A stretch of DNA of 64,000 nt from Eledone cirrhosa. Its lineage: Eukaryota. The notes beneath the pieces are model-generated. The model had not been told where the DNA came from. It saw only the letters and a program-made list of their open reading frames with translations, and did no database searches. Positions 10,471-46,670 of the stretch are shown in pieces (position 1 is the stretch's first letter; the number at the start of each line of letters is the position of its first letter). The stretch is from contig OZ024764.1 of assembly GCA_964016885.1 (NCBI GenBank), positions 27,838,001 through 27,902,000 of the forward strand. Direction: 5' to 3'. The position numbers were made by a program, and so were the translations under genes.

Positions 10471-10527
<57 letters not shown>

Positions 10528-10628
10528 TGTTCTTGTATTTCCATAGAAAAGGTAAAGAAAAGAAGAATGCTATATATATTGTACAGAGCTATTTAATTAC
10601 ATAATAAACAACAGAATATAATTATTCC

Positions 10629-10880: not shown

Positions 10881-10904
10881 ATTTCTCAGTCTCTCAGGGT
10901 ATAT
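10844..10904. other. Perfect palindrome, 30-bp arms with a 1-nt loop
   Basis: ATATACCCTGAGAGACTGAGAAATCTCTTT-G-AAAGAGATTTCTCAGTCTCTCAGGGTATAT. Confidence 0.97.
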
Positions 10905-14030: not shown

Positions 14031-14035
14031 ACAAA

Positions 14036-14070
<35 letters not shown>

Positions 14071-14965: not shown

Positions 14966-15214
14966 CAGAGAGAGAGAGTTGAAACGAGAGGTGAGAGAGT
15001 TGAAACAAGAGAGGAGATGGTTGAAACACGAGGAGAGAGAGAGAGTGGAAACGAGAGGAGAGAGAGAGAGTTGAAACGAGGAGAGAGTTGAAACAAGAGG
15101 GTGAGGGGAGAGAGGAAGAGAGAGAGAGAGAGGAAGAGAGAGAGAGGGGAAGAGAGAGAGGGGGAGAGAAGGGGATGAAACAACAGAGAGAGGGGAGAGA
15201 AAGAGAGAGGGGAT

Positions 15215-15255
<41 letters not shown>

Positions 15256-18200: not shown

Positions 18201-21200
18201 ACGAGAGAGAGGAAGACAGATATGAAACGAGAGAGAGAGAGAGCGAGATGAAACGAGAGAGAGGAAGAGAGAGAGCGCGAGATGAAAGTCTGTCATGTAA
18301 TGTTATGGACATATCTGCCCTTGGGGCTAATAATTGTCATGTAATGTTATGGACATATCTACCCTTGGGGCTAATAATTGTCATGTAATGTTATGTACAT
18401 CTCTGCCCCTGTGGCAAATAATTCTGTCATGTAATGTTATGGACATCTCTGTCCCTGTGGCTAATAATTATGTCATGTAATGTTATGGACATCTCTGCCC
18501 CTGTGGCTAATAATTCTGTCATGTAATGTTATGGACATCTCTGCCCCTGTGGCTAATAAATTCGTCATGTAATGTTATGGACATCTCTGCCCCTGTGGCT
18601 AATAAATCTGTCATGTAATGTTATGGACATCTCTGCCCCTGTGGCTAATAATTCTGACATGTAATGTTATGGATATCTCTGCCCCTGTGGCTAATAATTC
18701 TGAGAGAGATGAAACAAGTGAGGGATAAGAGAGAGATGAAACAAATGAGGGATTAGAGTGTTGAAACAAGAGAGAGAGAGGAAGAGAGAGTGAGAGCGAG
18801 ATCAAACGAGAGAGAGAGAGCGAGATGAAATGAGAGAGTGAGAGCGAGATGAAACGAGAGGGAGAGAGCGAGATGAAATGAGAGAGCGAGAGCGAGATGA
18901 AATGAGAGAGAGAGAGCGAGATGAAACGAGACAGAGAGAGCGAGATGAAACGAGAGAGAGAGAGAGCGAAATGAAACGAGACAGATTAGAGCGAGATGAA
19001 ACGAGAGAGAGAGAGCGAGATGAAATGAGAGAGAGAGAGCGAGATGAAACGAGAGAGTGAGAGCTAGAGGAAACGAGAGAGAGAGGAAACGAGAGAGAGG
19101 ATACGAGAGAGAGGAAACGAGAGTAGAGAGCGAGATGAAACAGGAGAGAGAGAGCGAGATGAAACAGGAGAGAGAGAGCGAGATGAAACGAGAGGGAGAG
19201 AGAGATGAAACGAGAGAGCGAGAGAGAGATAGAGGGAGATGAAACGACAGAGAGAGAGACAGATGAAACGAGGGAGATAGAGATGAAACGAGAGAGAGAG
19301 ATGAAACGAGAGAGAGGAAGAGAGAGATGGAACGAGAGAGAGGAAGAGAGAGATGGAACGAGAGAGAGGAAGACAGAGATGAAACGAGAGAGAGAGAGAG
19401 CGAGATGAAACGAGAGAGAGGAAGAGAGAACGCGAGATGAAACGAGAGAGAGAGAGAGCAAGATGAAACGAGAGAGAGGAAGAGAGAGAGCGCAAGATGA
19501 AACGAGAGAGAGAGCGCGAGATGAAAGTCTGTCATGTAATGTTATGGACATATCTGCCCTTGGGGCTAATAATTGTCATGTAATGTTATGGAAATCTCTG
19601 CCTCTGTGGCTAATAATTCTTTCATGTAATGTTATGGACATCTCTGCCCCTGTGGCTAATAATTCTGTCATGTAATGTTATGGACATCTCTGCCCCTGTG
19701 GCTAATAAATCTGTCATGTAATGTTATGGACATCTCTGCCCCTGTGGCTAATAATTCTGACATGTAATGTTATGGACATCTCTGCCCCTGTGGCTAATAA
19801 ATATGACATGTAATGTTATGGACATCTCTGCCCCTGTGGCTAATAAATCTGTCATGTAATGTTATGGACATCTCTGCCCCTGTGGCTAATAATTCTGACA
19901 TGTAATGTTATGGACATCTCTGCCCCTGTGGCTAATAATTCTGAGAGAGATGAAACAAGTGAGGGATTAGAGAGAGATGAAACAAGTGAGGGATTAGAGT
20001 GTTGAAACAAGAGAGAGAGAGAGGAAGAGAGAGTGAGAGCGAAATCAAACGAGAGAGAGCGAGATGAAATGAGAGAGTGAGAGCGAGATGAAACGAGAGA
20101 GAGAGAGAGAGCGAGATGAAATGAGAGAGAGAGAGCGAGATGAAATGAGAGAGAGAGAGCGAGATGAAACGAGACAGAGAGAGCGGGATGAAACGAGACA
20201 GAGAGAGCGAGAGCGAGATGAAACGAGACAGAGGGAGCGAGATGAAACGAGAGAGAGAGAGCGAGATGAAATGAGAGAGAGAGAGCGAGATGAAATGAGA
20301 GAGAGAGAGCGAGATGAAACGAGAGAGTGAGAGCGAGATGGAACGAGACAGAGAGAGCGAGATGAAACGAGAGTGGGAGAGCTAGATGAAACGAGAGAGA
20401 GAGGAAACGAGAGAGACGAAACGAGAGAGAGGAAACGAGAGTAGAGAGCGAGATGAAACAGGAGAGAGAGAGCGAGATGAAACAGGAGAGAGAGAGCGAG
20501 ATGAAACGAGAGGGAGAGAGAGATGAAACGAGAGAGCGAGAGAGAGATAGAGGGAGATAAAACGACAGAGAGAGAGACAGATGAAACGAGGGAGATAGAG
20601 ATGAAACGAGAGAGAGAGATGAAACGAGAGAGAGGAAGAGAGAGATGTAACGAGAGAGAGGAAGAGAGAGATGGAACGAGCGAGAGGAAGACAGAGATGA
20701 AACGAGACAGAGAGAGATCGAGATGAAACGAGAGAGAGGAAGAGAGAGAGCGCAAGATGAAACGAGAGAGAGAGAGAGAGAGAGCGAGATGAAACGAGAG
20801 AGAGGAAGAGAGAGAGCGCGAGATGAAACGAGAGAGCGGAAGAGAGAGAGCGCGAGATGAAATGAGAGAGAGAGAGCGAGATGAAATGAGAGATTGAGAG
20901 TGAGATGAAACGAGAGAGTGAGAGAGAGCGAGATGAAATGACAGAGAGAGAGCGAGATGAAATGAGAGAGAGAGAGCGAGATGAAACGAGACAGAGAGAG
21001 CGGGATGAAACGAGACAGAGAGATCGAGATGAAATGAGAGAGAGAGAGCGAGATGAAATGAGAGAGAGAGAGCGAGATGAAACGAGAGAGTGAGAGCGAG
21101 ATGGAACGAGTCAGAGAGAGCGAGATGAAACGAGAGAGTGAGAGCTAGATGAAACGAGAGAGAGAGGAAACGAGAGAGAGAGGAAACGAGAGAGAGGAAA

Positions 21201-24200
21201 CGAGAGAGAGGAAACGAGAGTAGAGAGCAAGATGAAACAGGAGAGAGAGAGAGCGAGATGAAACCGGAGAGAGAGAGCGAGATGAAACGAGAGGGAGGGA
21301 GAGATGAAACGAGAGAGCGAGAGAGAGATAGAGGGAGATGAAACGAGAGAGTGATAGCTAGATGAAACGAGAGAGAGAGGAATAGAGAGATGGAACGAGA
21401 GAGAGGAAGACAGATATGAAACGAGAGAGAGAGAGAGCGAGATGAAACGAGAGAGAGGAAGAGAGAGAGCGCGAGATGAAACGAGAGAGAGAGAGCGAGA
21501 TGAAACGAGAGAGAGAGCGAGATGAAACGAGAGAGAGGAAGAGAGAGAGCGCGAGATGAAAGTCTGTCATGTAATGTTATGGACATATCTGCCCTTGGGG
21601 CTAATAATTGTCATGTAATGTTATGGACATATCTACCCTTGGGGCTAATAATTGTCATGTAATGTTATGTACATCTCTGCCCCTGTGGCAAATAATTCTG
21701 TCATGTAATGTTATGGACACCTCTGTCCCTGTGGCTAATAATTATGTCATGTAATGTTATGGACATCTCTGCCCCTGTGGCTAATAATTCTGTCATGTAA
21801 TATTATGGACATCTCTGCCCCTGTGGCTAATAAATTCGTCATGTAATGTTATGGACATCTCTGCCCCTGTGGCTAATAAATCTGTCATGTAATGTTTTGG
21901 ACATCTCTTCCCCTGTGGCTAATAATTCTGACATGTAATGTTATGGATATCTCTGCCCCTGTGGCTAATAATTCTGAGAGAGATCAAACAAGTGAGGGAT
22001 AAGAGAGAGATGAAACAAGTGAGGGATTAGAGTGTTGAAACAAGAGAGAGAGAGGAAGAGAGAGTGAGAGCGAGATCAAACGAGAGAGAGAGAGCGAGAT
22101 GAAATGAGAGAGTGAGAGCGAGATGAAACGAGAGAGAGAGAGCGAGATGAAATGAGAGAGAGAGAGAGCGAGATGAAATGAGAGAGAGAGAGCGAGATGA
22201 AACGAGACAGAGAGAGCGAGGTGAAACGAGAGAGAGAGAGAGCGAAATGAAACGAGACAGATTAGAGCGAGATGAAACGAGAGAGAGAGAGCAAGATGAA
22301 ATGAGAGAGAGAGAGCGAGATGAAACGAGAGAGTGAGAGCTAGAGGAAACGATAGAGAGAGGAAACGAGAGAGAGAGGAAACGAGAGAGAGGATACGAGA
22401 GAGAGGAAACGAGAGTAGAGAGCGAGATGAAACAGGAGAGAGAGAGCGAGATGAAACAGGAGAGAGAGAGCGAGATGAAACGAGAGGGAGAGTGAGATGA
22501 AACGAGAGAGCGAGAGAGAGATAGAGGGAGATGAAACGACAGAGAGAGAGACAGATGAAACGAGGGAGATAGAGATGAAACGAGAGAGAGAGATGAAACG
22601 AGAGAGAGGAAGAGAGAGATGGAACGAGAGAGAGGAAGAGAGAGATGGAACGAGAGAGAGCGAGATGAAACGAGAGAGAGGAAGAGAGAGAACGCGAGAT
22701 GAAACGAGAGAGAGAGCAAGATGAAACGAGAGAGAGGAAGAGAGAGAGCGCAAGATGAAACGAGAGAGAGAGAGCGCGAGATGAAAGTCTGTCATGTAAT
22801 ATTATGGACATATCTGCCCTTGGGGCTAATAATTGTCATGTAATGTTATGGAAATCTCTGCCCCTGTGGCTAATAATTCTGTCATGTAATGTTATGGACA
22901 TCTCTGCCCCTGTGGCTAATAATTCTGTCATGTAATGTTATGGACATCTCTGCCCCTGTGGCTAATAAATCTGTCATGTAATGTTATGGACATCTCTGCC
23001 CCTGTGGCTAATAATTCTGACATGTAATGTTATGGACATCTCTGCCCCTGTGGCTAATAAATATGACATGTAATGTTATGGACATCTCTGCCCCTGTGGC
23101 TAATAAATCTGTCATGTAATGTTATGGACATCTCTGCCCCTGTGGCTAATAAATCTGTCATGTAATGTTATGGACATCTCTGCCCCTGTGGCTAATAATT
23201 CTGACATGTAATGTTATGGACATCTCTGCCCCTGTGGCTAATAATTATGTCATGTAATGTTATGGACATCTCTGCCCCTGTGGCTAATAATTCTGTCATG
23301 TAATATTATGGACATCTCTGCCCCTGTGGCTAATAAATTCGTCATGTAATGTTATGGACATCTCTGCCCCTGTGGCTAATAAATCTGTCATGTAATGTTT
23401 TGGACATCTCTTCCCCTGTGGCTAATAATTCTGACATGTAATGTTATGGATATCTCTGCCCCTGTGGCTAATAATTCTGAGAGAGATCAAACAAGTGAGG
23501 GATAAGAGAGAGATGAAACAAGTGAGGGATTAGAGTGTTGAAACAAGAGAGAGAGAGGAAGAGAGAGTGAGAGCGAGATCAAACGAGAGAGAGAGAGCGA
23601 GATGAAATGAGAGAGTGAGAGCGAGATGAAACGAGAGAGAGAGAGCGAGATGAAATGAGAGAGAGAGAGAGAGCGAGATGAAATGAGAGAGAGAGAGCGA
23701 GATGAAACGAGACAGAGAGAGCGAGGTGAAACGAGAGAGAGAGAGAGCGAAATGAAACGAGACAGATTAGAGCGAGATGAAACGAGAGAGAGAGAGCAAG
23801 ATGAAATGAGAGAGAGAGAGCGAGATGAAACGAGAGAGTGAGAGCTAGAGGAAACGATAGAGAGAGGAAACGAGAGAGAGAGGAAACGAGAGAGAGGATA
23901 CGAGAGAGAGGAAACGAGAGTAGAGAGCGAGATGAAACAGGAGAGAGAGAGCGAGATGAAACAGGAGAGAGAGAGCGAGATGAAACGAGAGGGAGAGTGA
24001 GATGAAACGAGAGAGCGAGAGAGAGATAGAGGGAGATGAAACGACAGAGAGAGAGACAGATGAAACGAGGGAGATAGAGATGAAACGAGAGAGAGAGATG
24101 AAACGAGAGAGAGGAAGAGAGAGATGGAACGAGAGAGAGGAAGAGAGAGATGGAACGAGAGAGAGGAAGACAGAGATGAAACGAGAGAGAGAGAGAGCGA

Positions 24201-27200
24201 GATGAAACGAGAGAGAGGAAGAGAGAGAACGCGAGATGAAACGAGAGAGAGAGCAAGATGAAACGAGAGAGAGGAAGAGAGAGAGCGCAAGATGAAACGA
24301 GAGAGAGAGAGCGCGAGATGAAAGTCTGTCATGTAATATTATGGACATATCTGCCCTTGGGGCTAATAATTGTCATGTAATGTTATGGAAATCTCTGCCC
24401 CTGTGGCTAATAATTCTGTCATGTAATGTTATGGACATCTCTGCCCCTGTGGCTAATAATTCTGTCATGTAATGTTATGGACATCTCTGCCCCTGTGGCT
24501 AATAAATCTGTCATGTAATGTTATGGACATCTCTGCCCCTGTGGCTAATAATTCTGACATGTAATGTTATGGACATCTCTGCCCCTGTGGCTAATAAATA
24601 TGACATGTAATGTTATGGACATCTCTGCCCCTGTGGCTAATAAATCTGTCATGTAATGTTATGGACATCTCTGCCCCTGTGGCTAATAATTCTGACATGT
24701 AATGTTATGGACATCTCTGCCCCTGTGGCTAATAATTCTGTCATGTAATGTTATGGACATCTCTGCCCCTGTGGCTAATAAATTCGTCATGTAATGTTAT
24801 GGACATCTCTGCCCCTGTGGCTAATAAATCTGTCATGTAATGTTATGGACATCTCTGCCCCTGTGGCTAATAATTCTGACATGTAATGTTATGGATATCT
24901 CTGCCCCTGTGGCTAATAATTCTGAGAGAGATGAAACAAGTGAGGGATAAGAGAGAGATGAAACAAATGAGGGATTAGAGTGTTGAAACAAGAGAGAGAG
25001 AGGCAGAGAGAGTGAGAGCGAGATCAAACGAGAGAGAGAGAGCGAGATGAAATGAGAGAGTGAGAGCGAGATGAAACGAGAGAGAGAGAGCGAGATGAAA
25101 TGAGAGAGCGAGAGCGAGATGAAATGAGAGAGAGAGAGCGAGATGAAACGAGACAGAGAGAGCGAGATGAAACGAGAGAGAGAGAGCGAAATGAAACGAG
25201 ACAGATTAGAGCGAGATGAAACGAGAGAGAGAGAGCGAGATGAAATGAGAGAGAGAGAGCGAGATGAAACGAGAGAGTGAGAGCTAGAGGAAACGAGAGA
25301 GAGAGGAAACGAGAGAGAGGATACGAGAGAGAGGAAACGAGAGTAGAGAGCGAGATGAAACAGGAGAGAGAGAGCGAGATGAAACAGGAGAGAGAGAGCG
25401 AGATGAAACGAGAGGGAGAGAGAGATGAAACGAGAGAGCGAGAGAGAGATAGAGGGAGATGAAACGACAGAGAGAGAGACAGATGAAACGAGGGAGATAG
25501 AGATGAAACGAGAGAGAGAGATGAAACGAGAGAGAGGAAGAGAGAGATGGAACGAGAGAGAGGAAGAGAGAGATGGAACGAGAGAGAGGAAGACAGAGAT
25601 GAAACGAGAGAGAGAGAGAGCGAGATGAAACGAGAGAGAGGAAGAGAGAACGCGAGATGAAACGAGAGAGAGAGAGAGCAAGATGAAACGAGAGAGAGGA
25701 AGAGAGAGAGCGCAAGATGAAACGAGAGAGAGAGCGCGAGATGAAAGTCTGTCATGTAATGTTATGGACATATCTGCCCTTGGGGCTAATAATTGTCATG
25801 TAATGTTATGGAAATCTCTGCCTCTGTGGCTAATAATTCTTTCATGTAATGTTATGGACATCTCTGCCCCTGTGGCTAATAATTCTGTCATGTAATGTTA
25901 TGGACATCTCTGCCCCTGTGGCTAATAAATCTGTCATGTAATGTTATGGACATCTCTGCCCCTGTGGCTAATAATTCTGACATGTAATGTTATGGACATC
26001 TCTGCCCCTGTGGCTAATAAATATGACATGTAATGTTATGGACATCTCTGCCCCTGTGGCTAATAAATCTGTCATGTAATGTTATGGACATCTCTGCCCC
26101 TGTGGCTAATAATTCTGACATGTAATGTTATGGACATCTCTGCCCCTGTGGCTAATAATTCTGAGAGAGATGAAACAAGTGAGGGATTAGAGAGAGATGA
26201 AACAAGTGAGGGATTAGAGTGTTGAAACAAGAGAGAGAGAGAGGAAGAGAGAGTGAGAGCGAAATCAAACGAGAGAGAGCGAGATGAAATGAGAGAGTGA
26301 GAGCGAGATGAAACTAGAGAGAGAGAGAGAGCGAGATGAAATGAGAGAGAGAGAGCGAGATGAAATGAGAGAGAGAGAGCGAGATGAAACGAGACAGAGA
26401 GAGCGGGATGAAACGAGACAGAGAGAGCGAGAGCGAGATGAAACGAGACAGAGAGAGCGAGATGAAACGAGAGAGAGAGAGCGAGATGAAATGAGAGAGA
26501 GAGAGCGAGATGAAATGAGAGAGAGAGAGCGAGATGAAACGAGAGAGAGAGGAAACGAGAGAGACGAAACGAGAGAGAGAGAGCGAGATGAAATGAGAGA
26601 GAGAGAGCGAGATGAAATGAGAGAGAGAGAGCTAGATGAAACGAGAGAGAGAGGAAACGAGAGAGACGAAACGAGAGAGAGGAAACGAGAGTAGAGAGCG
26701 AGATGAAACAGGAGAGAGAGAGCGAGATGAAACAGGAGAGAGAGAGCGAGATGAAACGAGAGGGAGAGAGAGATGAAACGAGAGAGCGAGAGAGAGATAG
26801 AGGGAGATGAAACGACAGAGAGAGAGACAGATGAAACGAGGGAGATAGAGATGAAACGAGAGAGAGAGGTGAAACGAGAGAGAGGAAGAGAGAGATGGAA
26901 CGAGAGAGAGGAAGGGAGAGATGGAACGAGAGAGAGGAAGACAGAGATGAAACGAGAGAGAGAGAGAGCAAGATGAAACGAGAGAGAGAGATGAAACGAG
27001 AGAGAGGAAGAGAGAGATGGAACGAGAGAGAGGAAGAGCGAGATGGAACGAGCGAGAGGAAGACAGAGATGAAACGAGACAGAGAGAGATCGAGATGAAA
27101 CGAGAGAGAGGAAGAGAGAGAGCGCAAGATGAAACGAGAGAGAGAGAGAGAGCGAGATGAAACGAGAGAGAGGAAGAGAGAGAGCGCGAGATGAAACGAG

Positions 27201-29683
27201 AGAGAGGAAGAGAGAGAGCGCGAGATGAAATGAGAGAGAGAGAGCGAGATGAAATGAGAGATTGAGAGTGAGATGAAACGAGAGAGTGAGAGAGAGCGAG
27301 ATGAAATGACAGAGAGAGAGCGAGATGAAATGAGAGAGACAGAGCGAGATGAAACGAGACAGAGAGAGCGGGATGAAACGAGACAGAGAGATCGAGATGA
27401 AATGAGAGAGAGAGAGCGAGATGAAATGAGAGAGAGAGAGCGAGATGAAACGAGAGAGTGAGAGCGAGATGGACCGAGTCAGAGAGAGCGAGATGAAACG
27501 AGAGAGTGAGAGCTAGATGAAACGAGAGAGAGAGGAAACGAGAGAGAGAGGAATCGAGAGAGAGGAAACGAGAGAGAGGAAACGAGAGTAGAGAGCAAGA
27601 TGAAACAGGAGAGAGAGAGAGCGAGATGAAACCGGAGAGAGAGAGCGAGATGAAACGAGAGGGAGGGAGAGATGAAACGAGAGAGCGAGAGAGAGATAGA
27701 GGGAGATGAAACGAGAGAGTGATAGCTAGATGAAACGAGAGAGAGAGGAATAGAGAGATGGAACGAGAGAGAGGAAGACAGATATGAAACGAGAGAGAGA
27801 GAGAGCGAGATGAAACGAGAGAGAGGAAGAGAGCACGAGATGAAACGAGAGAGAGAGAGCGAGATGAAACGAGAGAGAGAGCGAGATGAAACGAGAGAGA
27901 GGAAGAGAGAGAGCGCGAGATGAAAGTCTGTCATGTAATGTTATGGACATATCTGCCCTTGGGGCTAATAATTGTCATGTAATGTTATGGACATATCTAC
28001 CCTTGGGGCTAATAATTGTCATGTAATGTTATGTACATCTCTGCCCCTGTGGCAAATAATTCTGTCATGTAATGTTATGGACACCTCTGTCCCTGTGGCT
28101 AATAATTATGTCATGTAATGTTATGGACATCTCTGCCCCTGTGGCTAATAATTCTGTCATGTAATGTTATGGACATCTCTGCCCCTGTGGCTAATAAATT
28201 CGTCATGTAATGTTATGGACATCTCTGCCCCTGTGGCTAATAAATCTGTCATGTAATGTTTTGGACATCTCTTCCCCTGTGGCTAATAATTCTGACATGT
28301 AATGTTATGGATATCTCTGCCCCTGTGGCTAATAATTCTGAGAGAGATGAAACAAGTGAGGGATAAGAGAGAGATGAAACAAGTGAGGGATTAGAGTGTT
28401 GAAACAAGAGAGAGAGAGGAAGAGAGAGTGAGAGCGAGATCAAACGAGAGAGAGAGAGCGAGATGAAATGAGAGAGTGAGAGCGAGATGAAACGAGAGAG
28501 AGAGAGCGAGATGAAATGAGAGAGAGAGAGCGAGATGAAATGAGAGAGAGAGAGCGAGATGAAACGAGACAGAGAGAGCGAGGTGAAACGAGAGAGAGAG
28601 AGAGCGAAATGAAACGAGACAGATTAGAGCGAGATGAAACGAGAGAGAGAGAGAGCAAGATGAAATGAGAGAGAGAGAGCGAGATGAAACGAGAGAGTGA
28701 GAGCTAGAGGAAACGATAGAGAGAGGAAACGAGAGAGAGAGGAAACGAGAGAGAGGATACGAGAGAGAGGAAACGAGAGTAGAGAGCGAGATGAAACAGG
28801 AGAGAGAGAGCGAGATGAAACAGGAGAGATAGAGCGAGATGAAACGAGAGGGAGAGTGAGATGAAACGAGAGAGCGAGAGAGAGATAGAGGGAGATGAAA
28901 CGACAGAGAGAGAGACAGATGAAACGAGGGAGATAGAGATGAAACGAGAAAGAGAGATGAAACGAGAGAGAGGAAGAGAGAGATGGAACGAGAGAGAGGA
29001 AGAGAGAGATGGAACGAGAGAGAGGAAGACAGAGATGAAACGACAGAGAGAGCGAGATGAAACGAGAGAGAGGAAGAGAGAGAACGCTAGATGAAACGAG
29101 AGAGAGAGCAAGATGAAACGAGAGAGAGGAAGAGAGCGCAAGATGAAACGAGAGAGAGAGAGCGCGAGATGGAAGTCTGTCATGTAATGTTATGGACATA
29201 TCTGCCCTTGGGGCTAATAATTGTCATGTAATGTTATGGAAATCTCTGCCCCTGTGGCTAATAATTCTGTCATGTAATGTTATGGACATCTCTGCCCCTG
29301 TGGCTAATAATTCTATCATGTAATGTTATGGACATCTCTGCCCCTGTGGCTAATAAATCTGTCATGTAATGTTATGGACATCTCTGCCCCTGTGGCTAAT
29401 AATTCTGACATGTAATGTTATGGACATCTCTGCCCCTGTGGCTAATAAATATGACATGTAATGTTATGGACATCTCTGCCCCTGTGGCTAATAAATCTGT
29501 CATGTAATGTTATGGACATCTCTGCCCCTGTGGCTAATAATTCTGACATGTAATGTTATGGACATCTCTGCCCCTGTGGCTAATAAATCTGTCATGTAAT
29601 GTTATGGACATCTCTGCCCCTGTGGCTAATAATTCTGACATGTAATGTTATGGACATCTCTGCCCCTGTGGCTAATAATTCTG
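14965..29683 (+). repeat. Composite higher-order satellite, forward arm: 9 GA blocks each followed by a block of 9-15 46-mers
   Basis: 46-mer blocks at ~16067-16652, 18290-18701, 19530-19942, 21565-21976, 22790-23478, 24327-24922, 25750-26162, 27929-28340, 29178-29683; GA blocks ordered seed, A, B, A, B, B, B, A, B. Confidence 0.95.
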
Positions 29684-32600
29684 ATTTATTAGCCACAGGG
29701 GCAGAGATGTCCATAACATTACATGACAGAATTATTAGCCACAGGGGCAGAGATTTCCATAACATTACATGTCAGAATTATTAGCCACAGGGGCAGAGAT
29801 GTCCATAACATTACATGTCAGAATTATTAGCCACAAGGGCAGAGATGTCCATAACATTACATGACAGAATTATTAGCCACAGGGGCAGAGATGACCATAA
29901 CATTACATGACAATTATTAGCCACAGGGGCAGATATGTCAAAAACATTACATGACAGAGTTTCATCTCGCGCTCTCTCTCTCTCGTTTCATCTTGCGCTC
30001 TCTCTCTCTCTCGTTTCATCTTGCTCTCTCTCTCGTTTCATCTCTGTCTTCCTCTCTCTCGTTCCATCTCTCTCTTCCTCTCTCTCGTTCCATCTCTCTC
30101 ATCCTCTCTCTCGTTTCATCTCTATCTCCCTCCTTTCATCTGTCTCTCTCTCTGTCGTTTCATCTCGCGCTCTCTCTCTCTCGTTTCATCTCGCGCTCTC
30201 TCTGTCTCGTTTCATCTCGCTCTCTCTCTCTCTCGTTTCATCTCTGTCTTCCTCTCTCTCGTTCCATCTCTCTCTTCCTCTCTCTCGTTCCATCTCTCTC
30301 TTCTTCTCTCTCGTTTCATCTCTATCTCCCTCGTTTCATCTCTCTCTCGCTCTCTCGTTTCATCTCTCTCTCCCGCTCGTTTCTTTTCGCTCGCTCTCTC
30401 CTGTTTCATCTCGCTCTCTACTCTCGTTTCCTCTCTCTCATTTCCTCTCTCTCTCGTTTCTTCTCTGTCTCGTTTCATCTCGCTCTCTCTCTTTCTCGTT
30501 TGATCTCGCTCTCACTCTCTCGTTTCATCTCGCTTCTCTCACTCTCTTGTTTCATCTCGCTCTCTCTCTCTCTTCCTCTCTCTCTCTTGTTTCAACACTC
30601 TAATCCCTCACTTGTTTTATCTCTCTCTAATCCCTCACTTGGTTCATCTCTCTCAGAATTATTAGCCACAGGGGCAGAGATGTCCATAACATTACATGTC
30701 AGAATTATTAGCCACAGGGCAGAGATGTCCATAACATTACATGTCAGAATTATTAGCCACTGGGGCAGAGATGTCCATAACATTACATGTCAGAATTATT
30801 AGCCACAGGGGTAGAGATGTCCATAACATTACATGTCAGAATTATTAGCCACAGGGGCAGAGATGTCCATAACATTACATGACAGAATTATTAGCCACAG
30901 GGGCAGTGATGTCCATAACATTACATGACAATTATTAGCCCCAAGGGCAGATATGTCCATAACATTACATGACAGAGTTCCATCTCGCGCTCTCTCTCTT
31001 CCTCTCTCTCGTTTCATCTCGCTCTCTCTCTCTCTCGTTTCATCTCGCTCTCTCGTTTCATCTCGCTCTCTCGTTTCATCTCGCTCTCTCTCGTTTCATC
31101 TCTGTCTTCCTCTCTCTCGTTCCATCTCTCTCTTCCTCTCTCTCGTTCCATCTCTCTGTTCCTCTCTCTCGTTTCATTTCTATCTCCCTCCTTTCATCTG
31201 TCTCTCTCTCTGTCGTTTCATCTCGCGCTCTCTCTCTCTCGATTCATCTCGCGCTCTCTCTCTCTCGTTTCATCTCGCTCTCTCTCTCTCTCGTTTCATC
31301 TCTGTCTTCTTCTCTCGCGTTCCATCTCTCTCTTCCTCCCTCTCTTCCTCTCTCTCGTTTCATCTCTATCTCCCTCGTTTCATCTCTCTCTCCCTCTCGT
31401 TTCATCTCGCTCTCTCTCTCCTGTTTCATCTCGCTCTCTACTCTCGTTTCCTCTCTCTCGTTTCCTCTCTGTCTCGTTCCATCCCTTTCTCTCTCTCTCT
31501 CATTACATCTCGCTCTCTCTGTCTCGTTTCATCTCGCTCTCTCTCTCTCTCGTTTCATCTCGCTCTCACTCTCTCGTTTCATCTCGCGTTTCATCTCACT
31601 CTCCCTGTCTCATTTCACCTCGCTCTCTCTCTCTCTTCCTCTCTCTCTCTTGTTTCAACCCTCTAATCCCTCACTTGTTTTATCTCTCTCTAATCCCTCA
31701 CTTGTTTCATCTCTCTCAGAATTATTAGCCACAGGGGCAGAGATGTCCATAACATTACATGTCAGAATTATTAGCCACAGGGCAGAGATGTCCATAACAT
31801 TACATGTCAGAGTTATTAGCCACAGGGGCAGAGATGTCCATAACATTACATGTCAGAATTATTAGCCACGGGGGCGGAGACGTCCATAACATTACATGAC
31901 AGAATTATTAGCCACAGGGGCAGAGATGACCATAACATTACATGACAATTATTAGCCACAGGGGCAGATATATCAATAACATTACATGATAGAGTTTCAT
32001 CTCGCGCTCTCTCTCTCTCGTTTCATCTTGCTCTCTCTCTCTCTCGTTTCATCTCTGTCTTCCTCTCTCACGTTCCATCTCTCTCTTCCTCTCTCTCGTT
32101 CCATCTCTCTCTTCCTCTCTCTCGTTTCATCTCTATCTCCCTCGTTTCATCTCTCTCTCGCTCTCTCGTTTCATCTCTCTCTCCCTCTCGTTTCATCTCG
32201 CTCTCTACTCTCGTTTCCTCTCTCTCGTTTCCTCTCTGTCTCGTTCCATCCCGCTCTCTCTCTCTCACATTACATCTCGCTCTCTCTGTCTCGTTTCATC
32301 TCGCTCTCTCTCTCTCTCGTTTCATCTCGCTCTCACTCTCTCGTTTCATCTCGCTTCTCTCACTATTGCGTTTCATCTCGCTCTCCCTGTCTCATTTCAT
32401 CTCGCTCTCTCTCTCTCTCTTCCTCTCTCTCTCTTGTTTCAACACTCTAATCCCTCACTTGTTTTATCTCTCTCTAATCCCTCCCTTGTTTCATCTCTCT
32501 CAGAATTATTAGCCACTGGGGCAGAGATGTCCATAACATTACATGTCAGAGTTATTAGCCACAGGGGCAGAGATGTCCATAACATTACATGACAGAGTTT

Positions 32601-35600
32601 CATCTCGCGCTCTCTCTCTCTCGTTTCATCTCGCGCTCTCTCTCTTCCTCTCTCTCGTTTCATCTCGCTCTCTCTCTCTCTCGTTTCACCTCTGTCTTTC
32701 ATCTCTCTCTTCCTCTCTCTCGTTCCATCTCTCTCTTCCTCTCTCTCGTTTCATCTCTATCTCCCTCCTTTCATCTGTCTCTCTCTCTGTCGTTTCATCT
32801 CGCGCTCTCTCTCTCTCATTTCATCTCGCGCTCTCTCTCTCTCGTTTCATCTCGCTCTCTCTCTCTCTCGTTACATCTCTGTCTTCCTCTCTCTCGTTCC
32901 ATCTCTCTCTTCCTCTCTCTCTTCCTCTCTCTCGTTTCATCTCTATCTCCCTCGTTTCATCTCTCTCTCCCTCTCGTTTCATCTTGCTCTCTCTCTCCTG
33001 TTTCATCTCGCTCTCTACTCTCGTTTCCTCTCTCTCGTTTCCTCTCTGTCTCGTTCCATCCCGCTCTCTCTCTCTCTCATTACATCTCGCTCTCTCTGTC
33101 TCGTTTCATCTCGCTCTCTCTCTCTCTCGTTTCATCTCGCTCTCACTCTCTCGTTTCATCTCGCGTTTCATCTCACTCTCCCTGTCTCATTTCATCTCGC
33201 TCTCTCTCTCTCTTCCTCTCTCTCTCTTGTTTCAACACTCTAATCCCTCACTTGTTTTATCTCTCTCTAATCCCTCACTTGTTTCATCTCTCTCAGAATT
33301 ATTAGCCACAGGGGCAGAGATGTCCATAACATTACATGTCAGAATTATTAGCCACAGGGCAGAGATGTCCATAACATTACATGTCAGAATTATTAGCCAC
33401 AGGGGCAGAGATGTCCATAACATTACATGTCAGAATTATTAGCCACAGGGGCGGAGACGTCCATAACATTACATGACAGAATTATTAGCCACAGGGGCAG
33501 AGATGACCATAACATTACATGACAATTATTAGCCACAGGGGCAGATATATCAATAACATTACATGATAGAGTTTCATCTCGCGCTCTCTCTCTCTCGTTT
33601 CATCTTGCGCTCTCTCTCTCTCGTTTCATCTTGCTCTCTCTCTCTCTCGTTTCATCTCTGTATTCCTCTCTCTCGTTCCATCTCTCTATTCCTCTCTCTC
33701 GTTCCATCTCTCTCATCCTCTCTCTCGTTTTATCTGTATCTCCCTCCTTCAATCTGTCTCTCTCTCTGTCGTTTCATCTCGTGCTCTCTCTGTCTCGTTT
33801 CATCTCGCGCTCTCTCTGTCTCGTTTCATCTCGCTCTCTCTCTCTCTCTCGTTTCATCTCTGTCTTCCTCTCTCTCGTTCCATCTCTCTCTTCCTCTTTC
33901 TCGTTCCATCTCTCTCTTCCTCTCTCTCGTTTCATTTCTATCTCCCTCGTTTCATCTCTCTCTCGCTCTCTCGTTTCATCTCTCTCTCCCTCTCGTTTCA
34001 TCTCGCTCTCTACTCTCGTTTCCTCTCTCTCGTTTCCTCTCTGTCTCGTTCCATCCCGCTCTCTCTCTCTCTCATTACATCTCGCTCTCTCTGTCTCGTT
34101 TCATCTCGCTCTCTCTCGCTCTCGTTTCATCTCGCTCTCACTCTCTCGTTTCATCTCGCTTCTCTCACTATTGCGTTTCATCTCGCTCTCCCTGTCTCAT
34201 TTCATCTCGCTCTCTCTCTCTCTTCCTCTCTCTTGTTTCAACACCCTAATCCCTCACTTGTTTTATCTCTCTCTAATCCCTCACTTGTTTCATCTCTCTC
34301 AGAATTATTAGCCACAGGGGCAGAGATGTCCATAACATTACATGTCAGAGTTATTAGCCACAGGGGCAGAGATGTCCATAACGTTACATGACAATTATTA
34401 GCCCCAAGGGCAGATATGTCCATAACATTACATGACAGAGTTTCATCTCACGCTCTCTCTCTCTCGTTTCATCTCGCGCTCTCTCTCTTCCTCTCTCTCG
34501 TTTCATCTCGCTCTCTCTCTCTCTCGTTTCACCTCTGTCTTCCATCTCTCTCTTCCTCTCTCTCGTTCCATCTCACTCTTCCTCTCTCTCATTTCATCTC
34601 TCTCTCTCGTTTCATCTCTATCTCTCTCTCTCGTTTCATCTGTCTCTCTCTCTGTCGTTTCATCTCCCTCTATCTCTCTCTCCCTCTCGTTTCATCTCGC
34701 TCTCTCTCTCCTGTTTCATCTCGCTCTCTCTCTCTCCTGTTTCATCTCGCTCTCTACTCTCGTTTCCTCTCTCTCTCCCTCCTGTTTCATCTCGCTCTCT
34801 CTCTCTCGTTTCATCTCGCTCTCACTCTCTCGTTTCATCTCGCTCTCTCTCTGTCTCGTTTCATCTCGCTCTCTCTCTCTCATTTCATCTCGCTCTCTCT
34901 CTCTCATTTCATCTCGCTCTCTCTCTCTCGTTTCATCTCGCTCTCACACTCTCGTTTCATCTCGCTCTCACTCTCTCGTTTCATCTCGCTCTCCCTGTCT
35001 CGTTTCATCTCGCTCACACTCTCTCATTTCATCTCGCTCTCTCTCTCTCTCTTCTTTCAACACTCTAATCCCTCACTTGTTTCATCTCTCTCAGAATTAT
35101 TAGCCACAGGGGCAGAGATGACCATAACATTACATGTCAGAATTATTAGCCACAGGGGCAGAGATGTCCATAACATTACATGTCAGAATCATTAGCCACA
35201 GGGGCAGAGATGTCCATAACATTACATGACAGAATTATTAGCCACAGGGGCAGAGATGACCATAACATTACATGACAATTATTAGCCACAGGGGCAGATA
35301 TGTCAATAACATTACATGACAGAGTTTCATCTCGCGCTCTCTCTCTCTCTCGTTTCATCTTGCGCTCTCTCTCTCTCTCGTTTCCTCTCGCTCTCTCTCT
35401 CTCTCGTTTCATCTCTGTCTTCCTCTCTCTCGTTCCATCTCTCTCTTCCTCTCTCTCGTTCCATCTCTCTCTTCCTCTCTCTCGTTTCATCTGTCTCTCT
35501 CTCTGTCGTTTCATCTCGCGCTCTCTCTCTCTCGTTTCATCTCGCGCTCTCTCTCTCTCATTTCATCTCGCTCTCTCTCTCTCTCGTTTCATCTCTGTCT

Positions 35601-38600
35601 TCCTCTCTCTCTTCCTCTCTCTCGTTCCATCTCTCTCTTCCTCTCTCTCGTTTCATCTCTATCTCCCTCGTTTCATCTCTCTCTCGCTCTCTCGTTTCAT
35701 CTCTCTCTCCCTCTCGTCTCATCTCGCTCTCTCTCTTCTGTTTCATCTCGCTCTCTACTCTCGTCTCCTCTCTGTCGTTTCCTCTCTGTCTCGTTTCATC
35801 TCGCTCTCCCTGTCTCATTTCATCTCGCTCTCTCTCTCTCTCTTCCTCTCTGTCTCTTGTTTCAACACTCTAATCCCTCACTTGTTTTATCTCTCTCTAA
35901 TCCCTCACTTGTTTCATCTCTCTCAGAATTATTAGCCACAGGGGCAGAGATGTCCATAACATTACATGTCAGAGTTATTAGCCACAGGGGCAGAGATGTC
36001 CATAACGTTACATGACAATTATTAGCCCCAAGGGCAGATATGTCTATAACATTACATGACAGAGTTTCATCTCGCGCTCTCTCTCTCTCGTTTCATCTCG
36101 CGCTCTCTCTCTTCCTCTCTCTCGTTTCATCTCGCTCTCTCTCTCTCTCGTTTCACCTCTGTCTTCCATCTCTCTCTTCCTCTCTCACGTTCCATGTCAC
36201 TATTCCTCTCTCTCATTTCATCTCTCTCTCTCGTTTCATCTCTATCTCTCTCTCTCGTTTCATCTGTCTCTCTCTCTGTCGTTTCATCTCCCTCTATCTC
36301 TCTCTCCCTCTCGTTTCATCTCGCTCTCTCTCTCCTGTTTCATCTCGCTCTCTCTCTCTCCTGTTTCATCTCGCTCTCTACTCTCGTTTCCTCTCTCTCT
36401 CGCTCCTGTTTCATCTCGCTCTCTCTCTCTCGTTTCATCTCGCTCTCACTCTCTCGTTTCATCTCGCTCTCTCTCTGTCTCGTTTCATCTCGCTCTCTCT
36501 CTCTCATTTCATCTCGCTCTCTCTCTCTCATTTCATCTCGCTCTCTCTCTCTCGTTTCATCTCGCTCTCACTCTCTCGTTTCATCTCGCTCTCACTCTCT
36601 CGTTTCATCTCGCTCTCCCTGTCTCGTTTCATCTCGCTCACACTCTCTCATTTCATCTCGCTCTCTCTCTCTTCTTTCAACACTCTAATCCCTCACTTGT
36701 TTCATCTCTCTCAGAATTATTAGCCACAGGGGCAGAGATGACCATAACATTACATGTCAGAATTATTAGCCACAGGGGCAGAGATGTCCATAACATTACA
36801 TGTCAGAATCATTAGCCACCAGGACAGAGATGTCCATAACATTACATGACAGAATTATTAGCCACAGGGGCAGAGATGACCATAACATTACATGACAATT
36901 ATTAGCCACAGGGGCAGATATGTCAATAACATTACATGACAGAGTTTCATCTCGCGCTCTCTCTCTCTCTCGTTTCATCTTGCGCTCTCTCTCTCGTTTC
37001 CTCTCGCTCTCTCTCTCTCTCGTTTCATCTCTGTCTTCCTCTCTCTCGTTCCATCTCTCTCTTCCTCTCTCTCGTTCCATCTCTCTCTTCCTCTCTCTCG
37101 TTTCATCTGTCTCTCTCTCTGTCGTTTCATCTCGCGCTCTCTCTCTCTCTCTCGTTTCATCTCGCGCTCTCTCTCTCTCATTTCATCTCGCTCTCTCTCT
37201 CTCGCGTTTCATCTCTGTCTTCCTCTCTCTCTTCCTCTCTCTCGTTCCATCTCTCTCTTCCTCTCTCTCGTTTCATCTCTATCTCCCTCGTTTCATCTCT
37301 CTCTCGCTCTCTCGTTTCATCTCTCTCTCCCTCTCGTTTCATCTCGCTCTCTCTCTTCTGTTTCATCTCGCTCTCTACTCTCGTCTCCTCTCTGTCGTTT
37401 CCTCTCTGTCTCGTTTCATCTCGCTCTCCCTGTCTCATTTCATCTCGCTCTCTCTCTCTCTCTTCCTCTCTGTCTCTTGTTTCAACACTCTAATCCCTCA
37501 CTTGTTTTATCTCTCTCTAATCCCTCACTTGTTTCATCTCTCTTAGAATTATTAGCCACAGGGGCAGAGATGTCCATAACATTACATGTCAGAATTATTA
37601 GCCACAGGGCAGAGATGTCCATAACATTACATGTCAGAATTATTAGCCACAGGGGCAGAGATGTCCATAACATTACATGACAGAGTTTCATCTCGCTCTC
37701 TCTCTCTCTCGTTTCATCAGTGTCTTCCTCTCTCTCGTTCCATCTCTCTCTCGCTCTCTCTCGTTCCATCTCTATCTTCATCTCTCTCGTTTCATCTCTA
37801 TCTCCCTCCTTTCATCTGTCTCTCTCTCTGTCGTTTCATCTCGCGCTCTCTCTCTCTCGTTTCATCTCGCGCTCTCTCTCTCTTTCTCTCTCTCGTTTCA
37901 TCTCTATCTCCCTCGTTTCATCTGTCTCTCGCTCTCTCGTTTCATCTCTCTCTCCCTCTCGTTTCATCTCGCTCTCTACTCTCGTTTCCTCTCTCTCGCG
38001 TTCCATCCCGCTCTCTCTCTCTCTCATTACATCTCGCTCTCTCTGTCTCGTTTCATCTCGCTCTCTCTCTCTCTCGTTTCATCTCGCTCTCACTCTCTCG
38101 TTTCATCTCGCTTCTCTCACTCTCGTGTTTCATCTCGCTCTCCCTGTCTCATTTCATCTCGCTCTCTCTCTCTCTTCCTCTCTCTCTCTTGTTTCAACAC
38201 TCTAATCCCTCACTTGTTTTATCTCTCTCTAATCCCTCACTTGTTTCATCTCTCTCAGAATTATTAGCCACAGGGGCAGAGATGTCCATAACATTACATG
38301 TCAGAATTATTAGCCACAGGGCAGAGATGTCCATAACATTACATGTCAGAATTATTAGCCACAGGGGCAGAGATGTCCATAACATTACATGACAGAATTA
38401 TTAGCCACAGGGGCAGAGATGTCCATAACATTACATGTCAGAATTATTAGACACAGGGCAGAGATGTCCATAACATTACATGTCAGAATTATTAGCCACA
38501 GGGGCAGAGATGTCCATAACATTACATGTCAGAATTATTAGCCACAGGGGCCGAGATGTCCATAACATTACATGAAAGAATTATTAGCCACAGGGGCAGA

Positions 38601-39630
38601 GATGTCCATAACATTACATGACAGAATTATTAGCCACAGGGGCAGAGATGTCCATAACATTACATGACAATTATTAGCCCCAAGGGCAGATATGTCCATA
38701 ACATTACATGACAGAGTTTCATCTGGCGCTCTCTCTCTTCCTCTCTCTCGTTTCATCTCTGTCTTCCTCTCTCTCGTTCCATCTCTCTCTTCCTCTCGCT
38801 CGTTCCATCTCTCTCTTCCTCTCTCTCGTTTCATCTCTATCTCCCTCCTTTCATCTGTCTCTCTCTCTGTCGTTTCATCTCGCGCTCTCTCTCTCTCTCG
38901 TTTCATCTCGCGCTCTCTCTCTCTCGTTTCATCTCTCTCTCTCTCTCGTTTCATCTCTGTCTTCCTCTCTCTCGTTCCATCTCTCTCTTCCTCTCTCTCG
39001 TTTCATCTCTATCTCCCTCGTTTCATCTCTCTCTCCCTCTCGTTTCATCTCGCTCTCTCTCTCCTGTTTCATCTCGCTCTCTACTCTCGTTTCCTCACTC
39101 TCGTTTCATCTCTCTCTCGTTTCCTCTCTGTCTCGTTCCATCCCGCTCTCTCTCTCTCTCATTACATCTCGCTCTCTCTGTCTCGTTTCATCTCGCTCTC
39201 TCTCTCTCTCGTTTCATCTCGCTCTCACTCTCTCGTTTCATCTCGCTTCTCTCACTCTCGCGTTTCATCTCGCTCTCCCTGTCTCATTTCATCTCGCTCT
39301 CTCTCTCTCTTCCTCTCTCTCTCTTGTTTCAACACTCTAATCCCTCACTTGTTTTATCTCTCTCTAATCCCCCACGTGTTTCATCTCTCTCAGAATTATT
39401 AGCCACAGGGGCAGAGATGTCCATAACATTACATGTCAGAATTATTAGCCACAGGGCAGAGATGTCCATAACATTACATGTCAGAATTATTAACCACAGG
39501 GGCAGAGATGTCCATAACATAACATGACAGAATTATTAGCCACAGGGGCAGAGATGTCCATAACATTACATGACAGAATTATTAGCCACAGGGGCAGATA
39601 TGTCCATAACATTACATGACAGAGTTTCAT
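29683..39630 (-). repeat. Composite higher-order satellite, inverted arm: 11 CT blocks (~0.5-0.75 kb) alternating with blocks of 2-10 46-mers
   Basis: Reverse-complement monomer AGAATTATTAGCCACAGGGGCAGAGATGTCCATAACATTACATG(T/A)C; near-exact dimer duplication ~34299-35922 / 35923-37542. Confidence 0.95.
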
Positions 39631-39671
39631 CTGGTTGGAGTAATAACAGTCTTGTTTATGTATATACACAC

Positions 39672-39809: not shown

Positions 39810-42164
39810 ATGCATATAGACTTAGAATGGAAAACATTCAGACAGAGAAGAATGGATAATGAGCGTCGTAAGAGAAATTGGCCAACAATTAATATTAATG
39901 GAAATCTAGAAGAATTTCATATTAGTGATATGAATGTTTCGTGTGATCACTGTGAAGCTTTGAAATTTAGAAATGAAAATTGTAACTGTTGTAATAAAGG
40001 AAAGGTTGTGTTGCCTCCATTGCAAATATACCCCGAGAGACTGAGAAATCTCTTTGAAAGAGGCCAGGAAGCAGTTGATTTCACAGAAACGTCTGCAATT
40101 AAAACTACATTTATTTCACTTCATTTGGTGTTACCACCCGGCAGAGGCCCGTATAGCTTTCATATTCAGGGTCAAACATATCACTACACGCCCATCTCTG
40201 TAACCTGCAGAAAATACACCACAATATGGCCAGTTATATATTATTGATGGGAACGAAGGTGTGTAGCACAGATTGGAAGTACGACCAAATAATTGTTTCT
40301 GGCACAAGGCCAGCAATTACTGGTACTTTATTCTATCGACCTCATAAGGATGAAAACAAAGTCAACCTTGGAGGGATTTGAACCCAGAACGTAAAGGGCC
40401 ATAACCCTATGCTGCAAAGCATGGTGTCTGACGCTCTACCGATACTGCCAATCCACCGCCCTAGTACCAACAAATAATGAGTGCTCACCACAAAAAATGG
40501 CTATGATAAGAGAGGTGTTGCGTGATGTAATCCATATGTCGAAGTGTACAATACAATGCATGGCATCAAACAGCAAAGTGCAAGAAGAGAAAATTGTTGT
40601 GTACAGAACTGTAAATTAAGATTTAGAAGAGGATCAGATATGAGCTGCTATAATTTACCAACTAGTAATGATAGCTGTTGTTTTGTGGGGGATTGAGGGC
40701 AGACCACCTGTACAAAGAGATATTATCATCTTTCCTAAAGACCATCCTCCTCAGAATATATCACATAATTCATGCCACTTGGACCTCATGACCAACCCAT
40801 AATGGTGAATTTTGGTGGCATAGTGACATGGAGAGGAATGCAGGACCTGTGTTTGCAATAGACTGACAATGCAGGAGTATTACATATACAGTATAGCATA
40901 TAGAGGAGGATTTAGTGCGATATATAGGGCAGGTAAATTATTTTAGCAGTATTTAGTGGAAGCCTATATGAAAGTAGGGGGATGCAGGCTTCAATATTTG
41001 AGGAACAATCAAGCCCAATTGTGAGTGGATGAGTATAATGGTTTAATGAATTATCTAAACAGATGATAACACTGAGCCTTAAGAAATGAAGACAAGATAA
41101 GAAACAGAGAAGACATTGACAGAATCGTGTCAGCAGAAATACCTGCATTGGAAGATGATCAAGTACTACATGAGCAGGTTTAAAAGTTTATGATACACGG
41201 GCCATGTGGTTCTGGAAACCCTTTTCCCCCATTTATACAAAATGGATTTTTCCAAAAGAACTATCCAAAAACCTACAGAAGGGAAACATTATTGAACCTA
41301 AATGGATACCCAGAGTACAGGAGGTGCAAGACAGGAACTGCAGTGCAAATTGGATGACATTCAGTAGATAACAGGAATGTTGTGCCATTTAATGCCTTTT
41401 TGCTTAAGAAATATTGTGCATATATTAATGTTGAAGTTTGCGCTTCTGTAAAAAGTGTCAAGTACCTCTTTAAATATGTTACATGGGGCATGATTGTACA
41501 TCTATAGAAGTAACGAATAATGCATTACCTAATGAGGCTCAGAACCAACACAACCATGATGAAATAAGAACCTATCTTTGTTGCAGGTATGTGTCTCAGC
41601 CAGAAGCAGTGTCGTGTCTGTCCGAATTTAAGCTTCATGGTACATCACATACATTATACAGCCTAGCCACACACCTGGAGAACAAACAGAGTTTACTTTC
41701 AAAGAGGCAATGCTCAGGTTGTGGTAGAAATGCAGGGACCCTTGCTGCCTGGTTCAAGCTAAATGAACTTGCTTACACCTTCTGGGATGCCGCCTCACAA
41801 ACTCCAATTAAAAGCAGGATCAATAATAATGCTTCTATGGAATATTTCAATCCAGAACAGATTATGTAATGGCACAAGATTAGAAGTAGTAGAACTGCAT
41901 AAACATTTTATCAAAGCTTCTCATATCTATGGTCCTTTGATGGGCAGGTGTGTTTTGATCCCAAGACTGAAGTTAGCCCCCAGTGGTGCCAACATCCTTT
42001 TTACTTCGGAAAGACCCCAGTTTCCATTAAGACTGTCATATGCCATGACAATCAACAAGAACCATGGTCAAATACATGATAAAGTGGGTCTGTTCCTCCC
42101 TGAGCAAGTATTTAACCCTGGACAATTGTATGTTGCTTTTTCAAGAGTTCACAGACAGATGTAA
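39810..42164 (+). pseudogene. Most complete Helitron Rep/Hel remnant (alpha type, empty cassette site at 40567/40568)
   Basis: Continuous N-terminal Zn-finger-like region, N-terminal conserved domain, Rep Y2 motif, and Pif1 C-terminus LTPSGMPPHKLQLKAGSIIMLLWN...LCNGTRL...AMTINKNHGQ...GQLYVAFSRV; many stops and frameshifts. Confidence 0.95.
40294..40462 (-). mobile_element. tRNA-SINE inserted in the Helitron ORF (same insertion as 13756 and 49981)
   Basis: A and B boxes on the minus strand; TSD 40278-40293 / 40463-40478. Confidence 0.85.
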
Positions 42165-42496: not shown

Positions 42497-42712
42497 CACT
42501 TTACCTCCGACGACCAGCTTTCTACCGAGTGTGTGTTGATGGAGGGGACATGAGACCAGCAAAGTCCTAGGAGTAGAGACTAGTAAATAATAAACGGTCC
42601 TAGCTATGTTAAGAATATATATAATAAAAATGTTCTATACATTTAAGAAGACAAGAGAAATAAATATTTACCTCTTTCATGTAGGTAATATAGCGGTGTT
42701 ATAAAAGTATAA

Positions 42713-43285
42713 TAACTCTATCAGTGAAGCCCTTTAGTATAGGTCAACTGGGAAACTATAACACATATAACCCTATCAGTGAAGTCCTTTAGTATAGGTC
42801 AACTGGGAAACTATAACACATATAACCCTATCAGTGAAGTCCTTTAGTATAGGTCAACTGGGAAACTATAACACATATAACCCTATCAGTGAAGTCCTTT
42901 AGTATAGGTCAACTGGGAAACTATAACACATATAACCCTATCAGTGAAGTCCTTTAGTATAGGTCAACTGGGAAACTATAACACATATAACCCTATCAGT
43001 GAAGCCCTCTGGGAAACTATAACACATATAACTCTATCAGTGAAGCCCTTTAGTATAGGTCAACTGGGAAACTATAACACATATAACCCTATCAGTGAAG
43101 TCCTTTAGTATAGGTCAACTGGGAAATTATAACACATATAACCCTATCAGTGAAGTCCTTTAGTATAGGTCAACTGGGAAACTATAACACATATAACCCT
43201 ATCAGTGAAGTCCTTTAGTATAGGTCAACTGGGAAACTATAACACATATAACCCTATCAGTGAAGTCCTTTAGTATAGGTCAACT
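42713..43285. repeat. 55-bp VNTR, ~10.5 copies
   Basis: Same monomer as 4018-4277, expanded. Confidence 0.95.

Positions 43286-46604: not shown

Positions 46605-46670
<66 letters not shown>

Follow-up and report, generated by a model that had tools for sequence, protein, structure and literature searches.

The question raised by this locus is how a satellite array can turn around on itself, and how such a turning point can last. The window, a 64,000-nucleotide stretch of contig OZ024764.1 from Eledone cirrhosa to which all coordinates below refer, is eukaryotic repeat DNA containing a 46-bp minisatellite in 31 blocks with GA-rich tracts between them. Forward 46-mers at 29176–29684 abut reverse 46-mers at 29683–29960, with no foreign DNA at the join, as an earlier note on this sequence had claimed. 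The whole arrangement lies in a cassette of about 36 kb that occurs twice in the window. The origin that we favor, with somewhat better than even confidence, is one old, neutral inversion within the satellite, a compound of GA-rich tract and 46-bp minisatellite, through a template switch guided by microhomology.

The center of the junction is base 29682, with 11 forward monomers on one side and 6 reverse monomers on the other. The strand-switch center spans 29679–29685, and the two sides share a microhomology of two bases, GA, at 29683–29684; the best microhomologies that the monomer offers, of 4–6 bases, are absent from the center. A T:T mismatch three bases off center gives a predicted 7-nt loop on a perfect 40-bp stem (29639–29725), in which 29639–29678 pairs with 29686–29725. 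Single-strand folding predicts this stem and loop for the central 101 nt, at –52.9 kcal/mol, and one long interrupted hairpin for 461 nt around the center, at –262.3 kcal/mol. The same junction had been reported near 60309 and is indeed found there, at 60296–60320 (center 60308, with 12 forward monomers against 6 reverse). Within the window the 25-base junction sequence occurs only at these positions and at 29670–29694, where 100 shuffles give an expectation of 0, and both copies carry GATTTCCAT in the second reversed monomer. The GC skew reverses sign near 29.7 kb and again near 60.3 kb. A search of the window against Rfam returned 0 matches, and an RNA gene was rejected.

The join is thus as described, but the surprise attached to it in the earlier note is overstated. 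Because the array is periodic at 46 bp, any inversion with both breaks inside it automatically lacks a spacer and leaves a loop of at most 23 nt, and strand switches occur in the hundreds in some human satellites.

The mirror symmetry around the centers is local. Without gaps, 9 mismatched pairs (29682) and 8 (60308) are found in the first 230, an identity of 96% over 230 bp, after which the two sides fall out of register. With gaps, 261 of 276 and 262 of 276 positions are identical (~94%), so that the near-perfect palindrome of "~270 bp" proposed before is about right. The quasi-palindrome of ~25 kb proposed along with it does not hold as such: the span of about 14960–39632 is palindromic in orientation only, with 9 units facing 12 blocks and a global mirror identity of 0.64–0.72 over 0.5–3.6 kb. 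A 25-kb mirror palindrome was rejected, as the arms measure 14.7 kb (forward) and 10 kb (reverse), their units differ in length and they carry arm-specific variants.

Even the inner stem is unexceptional for this satellite. The innermost 3–4 monomer pairs contain 4–6 mismatches, compared with medians of 8 and 10 for random forward-by-reverse pairings (n = 2244 and 765), and the fraction of random monomer runs at or below the observed values is 0.08–0.17, which is not significant. The inner pairs are thus matched by random monomer runs, and a stem of this kind is to be expected from any inversion in a 46-bp array of 95% homogeneity. A fold-back or breakage-fusion-bridge event should leave a small central loop between arms that are mirror copies of each other. 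The small loop is present, with a one-base center and the predicted 7 nt, and the same is found in 20 of 92 random joins with a microhomology of at least two bases; the arms, in contrast, carry arm-specific variants right up to the center.

A mirror-type origin can still be envisaged, in which a perfect palindrome with a one-base center was formed first, by a hairpin-capped break or a sister-chromatid fusion, after which a change three bases off center opened the loop and turnover erased the mirror. The junction is one change, at 29685, away from being a perfect palindrome centered on 29682. Joins with a center within one base of symmetry make up only 6.4% of all joins, the inner monomers are slightly more alike than random ones (the fractions given above), and a clear snap-back copy exists elsewhere in the window, at 10844–10904. 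However, the two mismatches nearest the center, at offsets 3 and 44, fall on the two commonest variant sites of the satellite and match variants already common there, the outcome to be expected from the joining of two such variants. The inner blocks, moreover, differ in start motif, in first and second monomer type and in length. We consider this origin doubtful, but not negligible.

The two arms are built differently. The left arm (14960–29684, forward strand) consists of 9 higher-order units of 1.2–2.2 kb each, comprising two 27-mers, a GA-rich tract and 9–15 copies of the 46-mer. The right arm (29683–39632, reverse strand) has 12 blocks of 2–10 monomers in reverse orientation, in units of 0.7–1.1 kb. 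In the second cassette copy, the left arm (50967–60310, forward strand) contains 5 units and the right arm (60309–64000, reverse strand) 4 blocks, extending past the end of the window. The arms were compared by 19-mers in 29 of the 31 units, two short outliers being excluded. There are 82 left-diagnostic 19-mers, present in at least 70% of left units and in no right units, and 39 right-diagnostic 19-mers that are distributed the other way round. The distance is 0.55 between arms, against 0.38 and 0.50 within them. None of 5000 label permutations was as extreme, a figure that is no formal probability, since the units are kin by descent. Units from both cassette copies cluster by arm rather than by copy. 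A-type monomers account for 46 of 141 monomers in the left arms and 2 of 74 in the right arms, and those two are the ones at the junctions.

The blocks that touch the center show how the two sides were cut. The inner left block (29176–29684, forward strand) has 11 monomers of left-arm type and stops at the end point of all complete blocks. The inner right block (29683–29960, reverse strand) has 6 monomers of right-arm type and starts within an A-type monomer. The end point and the last monomer variant are identical in 26 of 26 complete blocks, a rule to which both inner left blocks conform and neither inner right block does, which indicates that the right side was cut within a block. This bears on the idea that two complete higher-order units were fused tail to tail at their natural ends, with five bases then lost on one side of the center. 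Revision of a palindrome by breakage at its center is known from work on mouse palindromes, the left arm does stop exactly where the 26 complete blocks end, and a one-sided loss of five bases gives the observed letters. The last full monomer of the inner right block, however, differs from the variant found at the end of all 26 complete blocks, and a fusion of this kind is unlikely.

The cassette duplication sets a minimum age for the junction. The repeat offset is 36.2 kb in the non-satellite DNA and 30.6 kb between the junctions, the latter being shorter because the second left arm has 5 units and not 9. The cassette copies differ at 29 of 3041 aligned sites (~1%), and their junction blocks at 6 of ~785 sites. 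Compared copy with copy, the inner left blocks show 2 mismatches and one extra monomer, and the inner right blocks 4 mismatches in 278. The junction is common to the two copies, as is the pattern of variants in each inner block, and the units of both cluster by arm, in agreement with the earlier suggestion of one event that predates the large duplication. The junction has therefore outlasted ~1% divergence plus several arm rearrangements.

The center is unchanged in both of its copies although both arms have been reshuffled, and it seems to be present about once per cassette in another individual (run X9, below), as if the junction were kept by selection as a structural or protein-binding site, a role that has been proposed for the macro-dyads of Tribolium. 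At 1% divergence, however, the chance of a 25-mer staying unchanged is ~78% (0.99^25). In human satellites, strand switches appear to arise as a side effect of array growth (bioRxiv 10.64898/2026.07.22.740206), and the Tribolium authors call the function untested (PMC13081366, PMC12581902). Maintenance by selection is accordingly improbable. The switch is likely to persist through the features of the hairpin that it could form (a 7-nt loop, a mismatch every 25–30 bp and an end after 230–280 bp) and through weak selection on such DNA. That interrupted arms aid persistence would follow from the known rules for palindromes. The hairpin risk grows with arm length, likeness and closeness, and forks are still stalled, and breaks still occur, at inverted Alu pairs whose spacer is 12 bp (PMC7999016); by analogy, a stem of 230 bp and 96% identity is predicted to be mildly fragile rather than safe. 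Because such switches abound in satellites, the survival of the junction is only a modest puzzle.

The satellite was found in 7 of 11 listed sequencing runs, from 3 studies. Four of the 11 runs were compared with 52 bases around the center, using Logan contigs for X4, X1 and X2 and raw restriction site-associated DNA (RAD) reads for X9. The listed run X3, a glacier metagenome with a share of 0.12, was not among the four and carries no weight as evidence. No contig spans the center among the 31 pieces from X4, the 4 from X1 and the 1 from X2 (36 in total), and a gap in such contigs proves nothing. The 46-mer is also present in the two other coded organisms of runs X1 and X2, with the junction not seen in their contigs; the satellite is hence common to related species. 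The monomer pattern gave 0 matches in metagenome contigs.

Run X9 derives from an AATT-cutting digest, and 424 reads were placed from ~85% of the run. At the AATT site at 29677 the depth steps up by 18 and 13; 17 reads have unrelated preceding letters, and 13 molecules end there. No alternative letters are listed over 29678–29684. We read this as about 31 of the 424 reads starting at the cut and crossing the junction, as judged from tables rather than from single reads. The 32-base right part of the junction matches only the two junctions in the window within 3 substitutions. The remaining listed joints total 496 reads, so that the ratio of junction to other joints is 1:16, near the 2:42 in a digest of the window, and a founder-block variant that occurs once per cassette has 30 reads. 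These counts fit one junction per cassette in the X9 individual. That so small a fragment has 31 reads hints at many copies, subject to genome size, ligation bias and size selection, in an organism (C) that is not necessarily the species of the window.

These data also bear on the view that the junction is a library fold-back chimera or a misassembly. Satellite arrays are hard to assemble, and no contig of the three runs spans the center. A chimera, however, would mirror its own molecule, whereas these arms differ by many arm-specific variants and both junction copies carry private differences. The earlier note had already judged an artefact unlikely, as the arms differ and the junction recurs. 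In addition, the ~31 raw reads that fit the junction come from a separate study, and its right part is, within the window, unique to the junctions. A library chimera was rejected, and an artefact is hardly probable.

The DNA around the satellite consists of a decayed Helitron Rep-helicase gene in several partial copies. It combines Rep with a Pif1-type helicase (PF21530, E 5e-14), gives collinear but broken tblastn matches to P0001 (a 1530-residue protein with PF14214 and PF05970), and has its best named protein match, at 63%, in Octopus bimaculoides. The copy at 39840–42158 (forward strand) is intact across the insertion point, with a Pif1 2B domain at 41763–42161. The gene is unbroken at 40464–41063; elsewhere it breaks off after residue 340 (14039) and continues from residue 341 (1851). 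The 5' part at 13302–14039 (forward strand) encodes residues 154–340 of P0001 and is cut by the satellite-bearing insert after 14031. TCA is found once at the empty site (40566–40568), and both at the left end (14029–14031) and at the right end (1849–1851) of the insert, a comparison that pairs insert ends from different cassette copies, the left end of the first copy lying outside the window. The decayed Helitron gene is thus split by the insert that carries the satellite. The insert begins with an AT-rich lead segment (14032–14960, forward strand) that runs from the Helitron break to the first GA tract.

A simpler allele is found at 1–1851 (forward strand), with one GA tract and 7 monomers; it rejoins the Helitron at residue 341, with TCA repeated, and has no inverted arm. 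It bears markers of both arms and is likely the ancestral state. Its block at 1488–1831 contains both right-arm markers as well as an A-type monomer, and makes a fitting ancestral template for the inverted arm. That arm has its outer junction at 39631–39632, nine bases beyond a block start and within a GA tract, where a 2-base microhomology, CT, leads into the 5' part of another Helitron copy.

Helitrons have a 5' TC and a 3' end with a hairpin followed by CTRR, insert between A and T and make no target repeat. The last letters of the left arm are CTGA, with a T next to them, the right side is compatible with an A/T site, and Helitron remnants flank the satellite, so the left arm might be a Helitron-like 3' end inserted into an oppositely oriented array. 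If the Helitrons stood head to tail, however, the tandem unit junctions should continue with TC, and they do not. In most monomers the GC hairpin that precedes the end has a stem of 3 bp, and the allele that is probably ancestral terminates at another position, with a 3-base repeat. Such an insertion is very unlikely.

In the template switch that we favor, a segment with one satellite unit would first have inserted into the Helitron gene, and the unit would have duplicated in tandem. Next, a 3' end that had broken or stalled where blocks usually end would have annealed, through two bases, to an A-type monomer in a block of ancestral type. This template may have been its own strand, in a looped fold-back whose loop itself consisted of monomers, or a neighboring copy. 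Copying would have run backward through the ancestral-type stretch and left it by two bases into another Helitron copy. The arms may subsequently have expanded and homogenized separately, by same-direction slippage or unequal exchange and with none across the switch, before the whole cassette duplicated. The earlier note spoke of a fold-back event. That there was one event is upheld; a true fold-back is no more than a possibility, as the two arms fail to mirror each other even where their blocks touch the center.

Several observations weigh against this account, besides the contigs that fail to cross the center. The two-base microhomology is weak evidence, since 92 of 1584 possible joins have at least two bases, and the near-symmetric center leans toward a mirror-type origin. 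By eye, no present left block matches the inner right block in any register, which leaves the template postulated. In the k-mer tree, two right units (R1_6 and R1_8) cluster with the left arm, so the barrier to exchange may be incomplete, and the founder units are placed outside the cluster of their own arm, at odds with the picture of separate arms.

Among known systems, the closest in form are the macro-dyad symmetries of satellites in Tribolium madens and T. freemani, which have a recurring inversion site (PMC13081366, PMC12581902). In both cases there are kilobase-long inverted subarrays of one satellite with unequal arms, here 14.7 kb forward and 10 kb reverse and there up to 75 and 26 kb. 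Both have a recurring inversion site with a predicted hairpin (58–98 bp in Tribolium) that has spread as a cassette, and the Tribolium satellite TmSat4 is likewise joined to microsatellite tracts. In Tribolium, however, there are thousands of sites (2044, 3486 and 6428) in putative pericentromeres of several megabases, confirmed with raw HiFi reads, whereas the window holds two copies in a Helitron-derived 36-kb cassette. The site recurs in both cassettes of the window, but both come from one duplication and the X9 counts are read indirectly. The center monomer here is not degenerate, unlike that of Tribolium.

Human beta-satellite, HSat3 and alpha-satellite contain strand switches, with more than 200 breakpoints in one genome, that persist and segregate (bioRxiv 10.1101/2021.07.12.452052; 10.64898/2026.07.22.740206). 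As here, orientation changes within arrays, and the changes are read there as by-products of array expansion. The human monomers are unrelated to the 46-mer. The junction works like those of the Tribolium macro-dyads and is one more strand switch of the human-satellite kind; it fails the mirror test for a fold-back.

Template-switch inversions are known as origin-dependent inverted-repeat amplification (ODIRA), fork stalling and template switching (FoSTeS) or microhomology-mediated break-induced replication (MMBIR), and duplication-inverted triplication-duplication (DUP-TRP/INV-DUP) (PMC10766186). They share with this locus an inverted segment, two short-homology junctions and directly repeated DNA on either side. 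Here there are two junctions, and a Helitron 5' part is repeated; unlike in DUP-TRP/INV-DUP, however, the repeat that follows the inverted arm derives from another copy, and the arms do not mirror each other. This 5' part gives 867 identities, 23 mismatches and 49 gaps, against 880, 11 and 0 between the cassette copies. Satellites borne by Helitrons or Helentrons also combine minisatellite and microsatellite arrays amid Helitron sequence (PMC7492417, PMC8268682); those arrays form the core of a non-autonomous element, whereas the array here interrupts a Helitron gene. No published description of this 46-bp satellite was found in a search of the open-licence literature.

As it stands, the junction is no more than an ordinary satellite strand switch. 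It is useful as a well-resolved example, in which an ancestor-like allele, both junctions and two later copies lie in one window and the arms of a single satellite have diverged across an inversion point. We put forward only tentatively that the 36-kb cassette, with its fixed and hairpin-prone center, is a macrosatellite with tens or hundreds of copies. It would then be a Tribolium-type macro-dyad in a distant lineage, born in a dead Helitron and adjoining its un-inverted ancestor, with the inversion point as a wall between separately homogenizing arms. According to a 2026 paper, macro-dyad satellites had been documented in Tribolium alone; in PMC13427858 the term "macro-dyad" appears solely among the references. 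If the cassette were common in the genome, such satellites would extend beyond Tribolium, and conservation of the center by function could be tested against conservation by descent only.

Further features of the window concern the insert and its surroundings. In the allele at 1–1851, the 46-mer block is flanked by a 10-base inverted repeat (1478–1487 and 1841–1850). The same motif is the core of the GA tracts, and the inverted arm ends on it (39624–39632); it is a possible inversion substrate or element end. Foldback elements of the FB/Galileo type have long terminal inverted repeats reaching both element ends, and a target duplication. A foldback transposon was rejected here: the left end is a 0.9-kb non-satellite segment, the right end stops 9 bases into a GA tract and no shared target repeat was seen. 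Relative to 14748–15480, the second cassette is missing ~0.7 kb at 50966–50967, where the lead segment gives way to the first GA tract. Downstream of the Helitron helicase, a 55/41-bp minisatellite (4020–4277 and 42712–43285) and a 40-bp minisatellite (4723–4914 and 43731–43921) both differ in copy number between the cassette copies. Short pieces resembling short interspersed elements (SINEs), 72–77% alike, lie at 13770–13920, 14620–14770 and 40300–40460. They may resemble an abundant octopus SINE; a 15-base motif from them gave 0 matches in a text search of the literature.

The region seems prone to inversion. The snap-back at 10844–10904 lies inside a Helitron copy and has 29-base mirror arms and a 3-nt loop, followed by a jump into an 89-bp array. 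Its seed was a natural inverted repeat, of 5 bp around a 3-nt loop, in the Helitron parent at about 13490–13525, and it is what a true fold-back looks like in this DNA. The array (10901–11701) comprises an 89-bp unit, composed of two small hairpins, in nine copies. Its asymmetric loops flip direction at about 11250, so that it is itself a 0.8-kb dyad; it sits between direct copies at 9002–10880 and 11699–13524 and is absent from the second cassette. Local inverted duplications of 0.5–1.2 kb are also found in the non-satellite DNA, at 7179–8406, 44501–45420 and 45616–47358.

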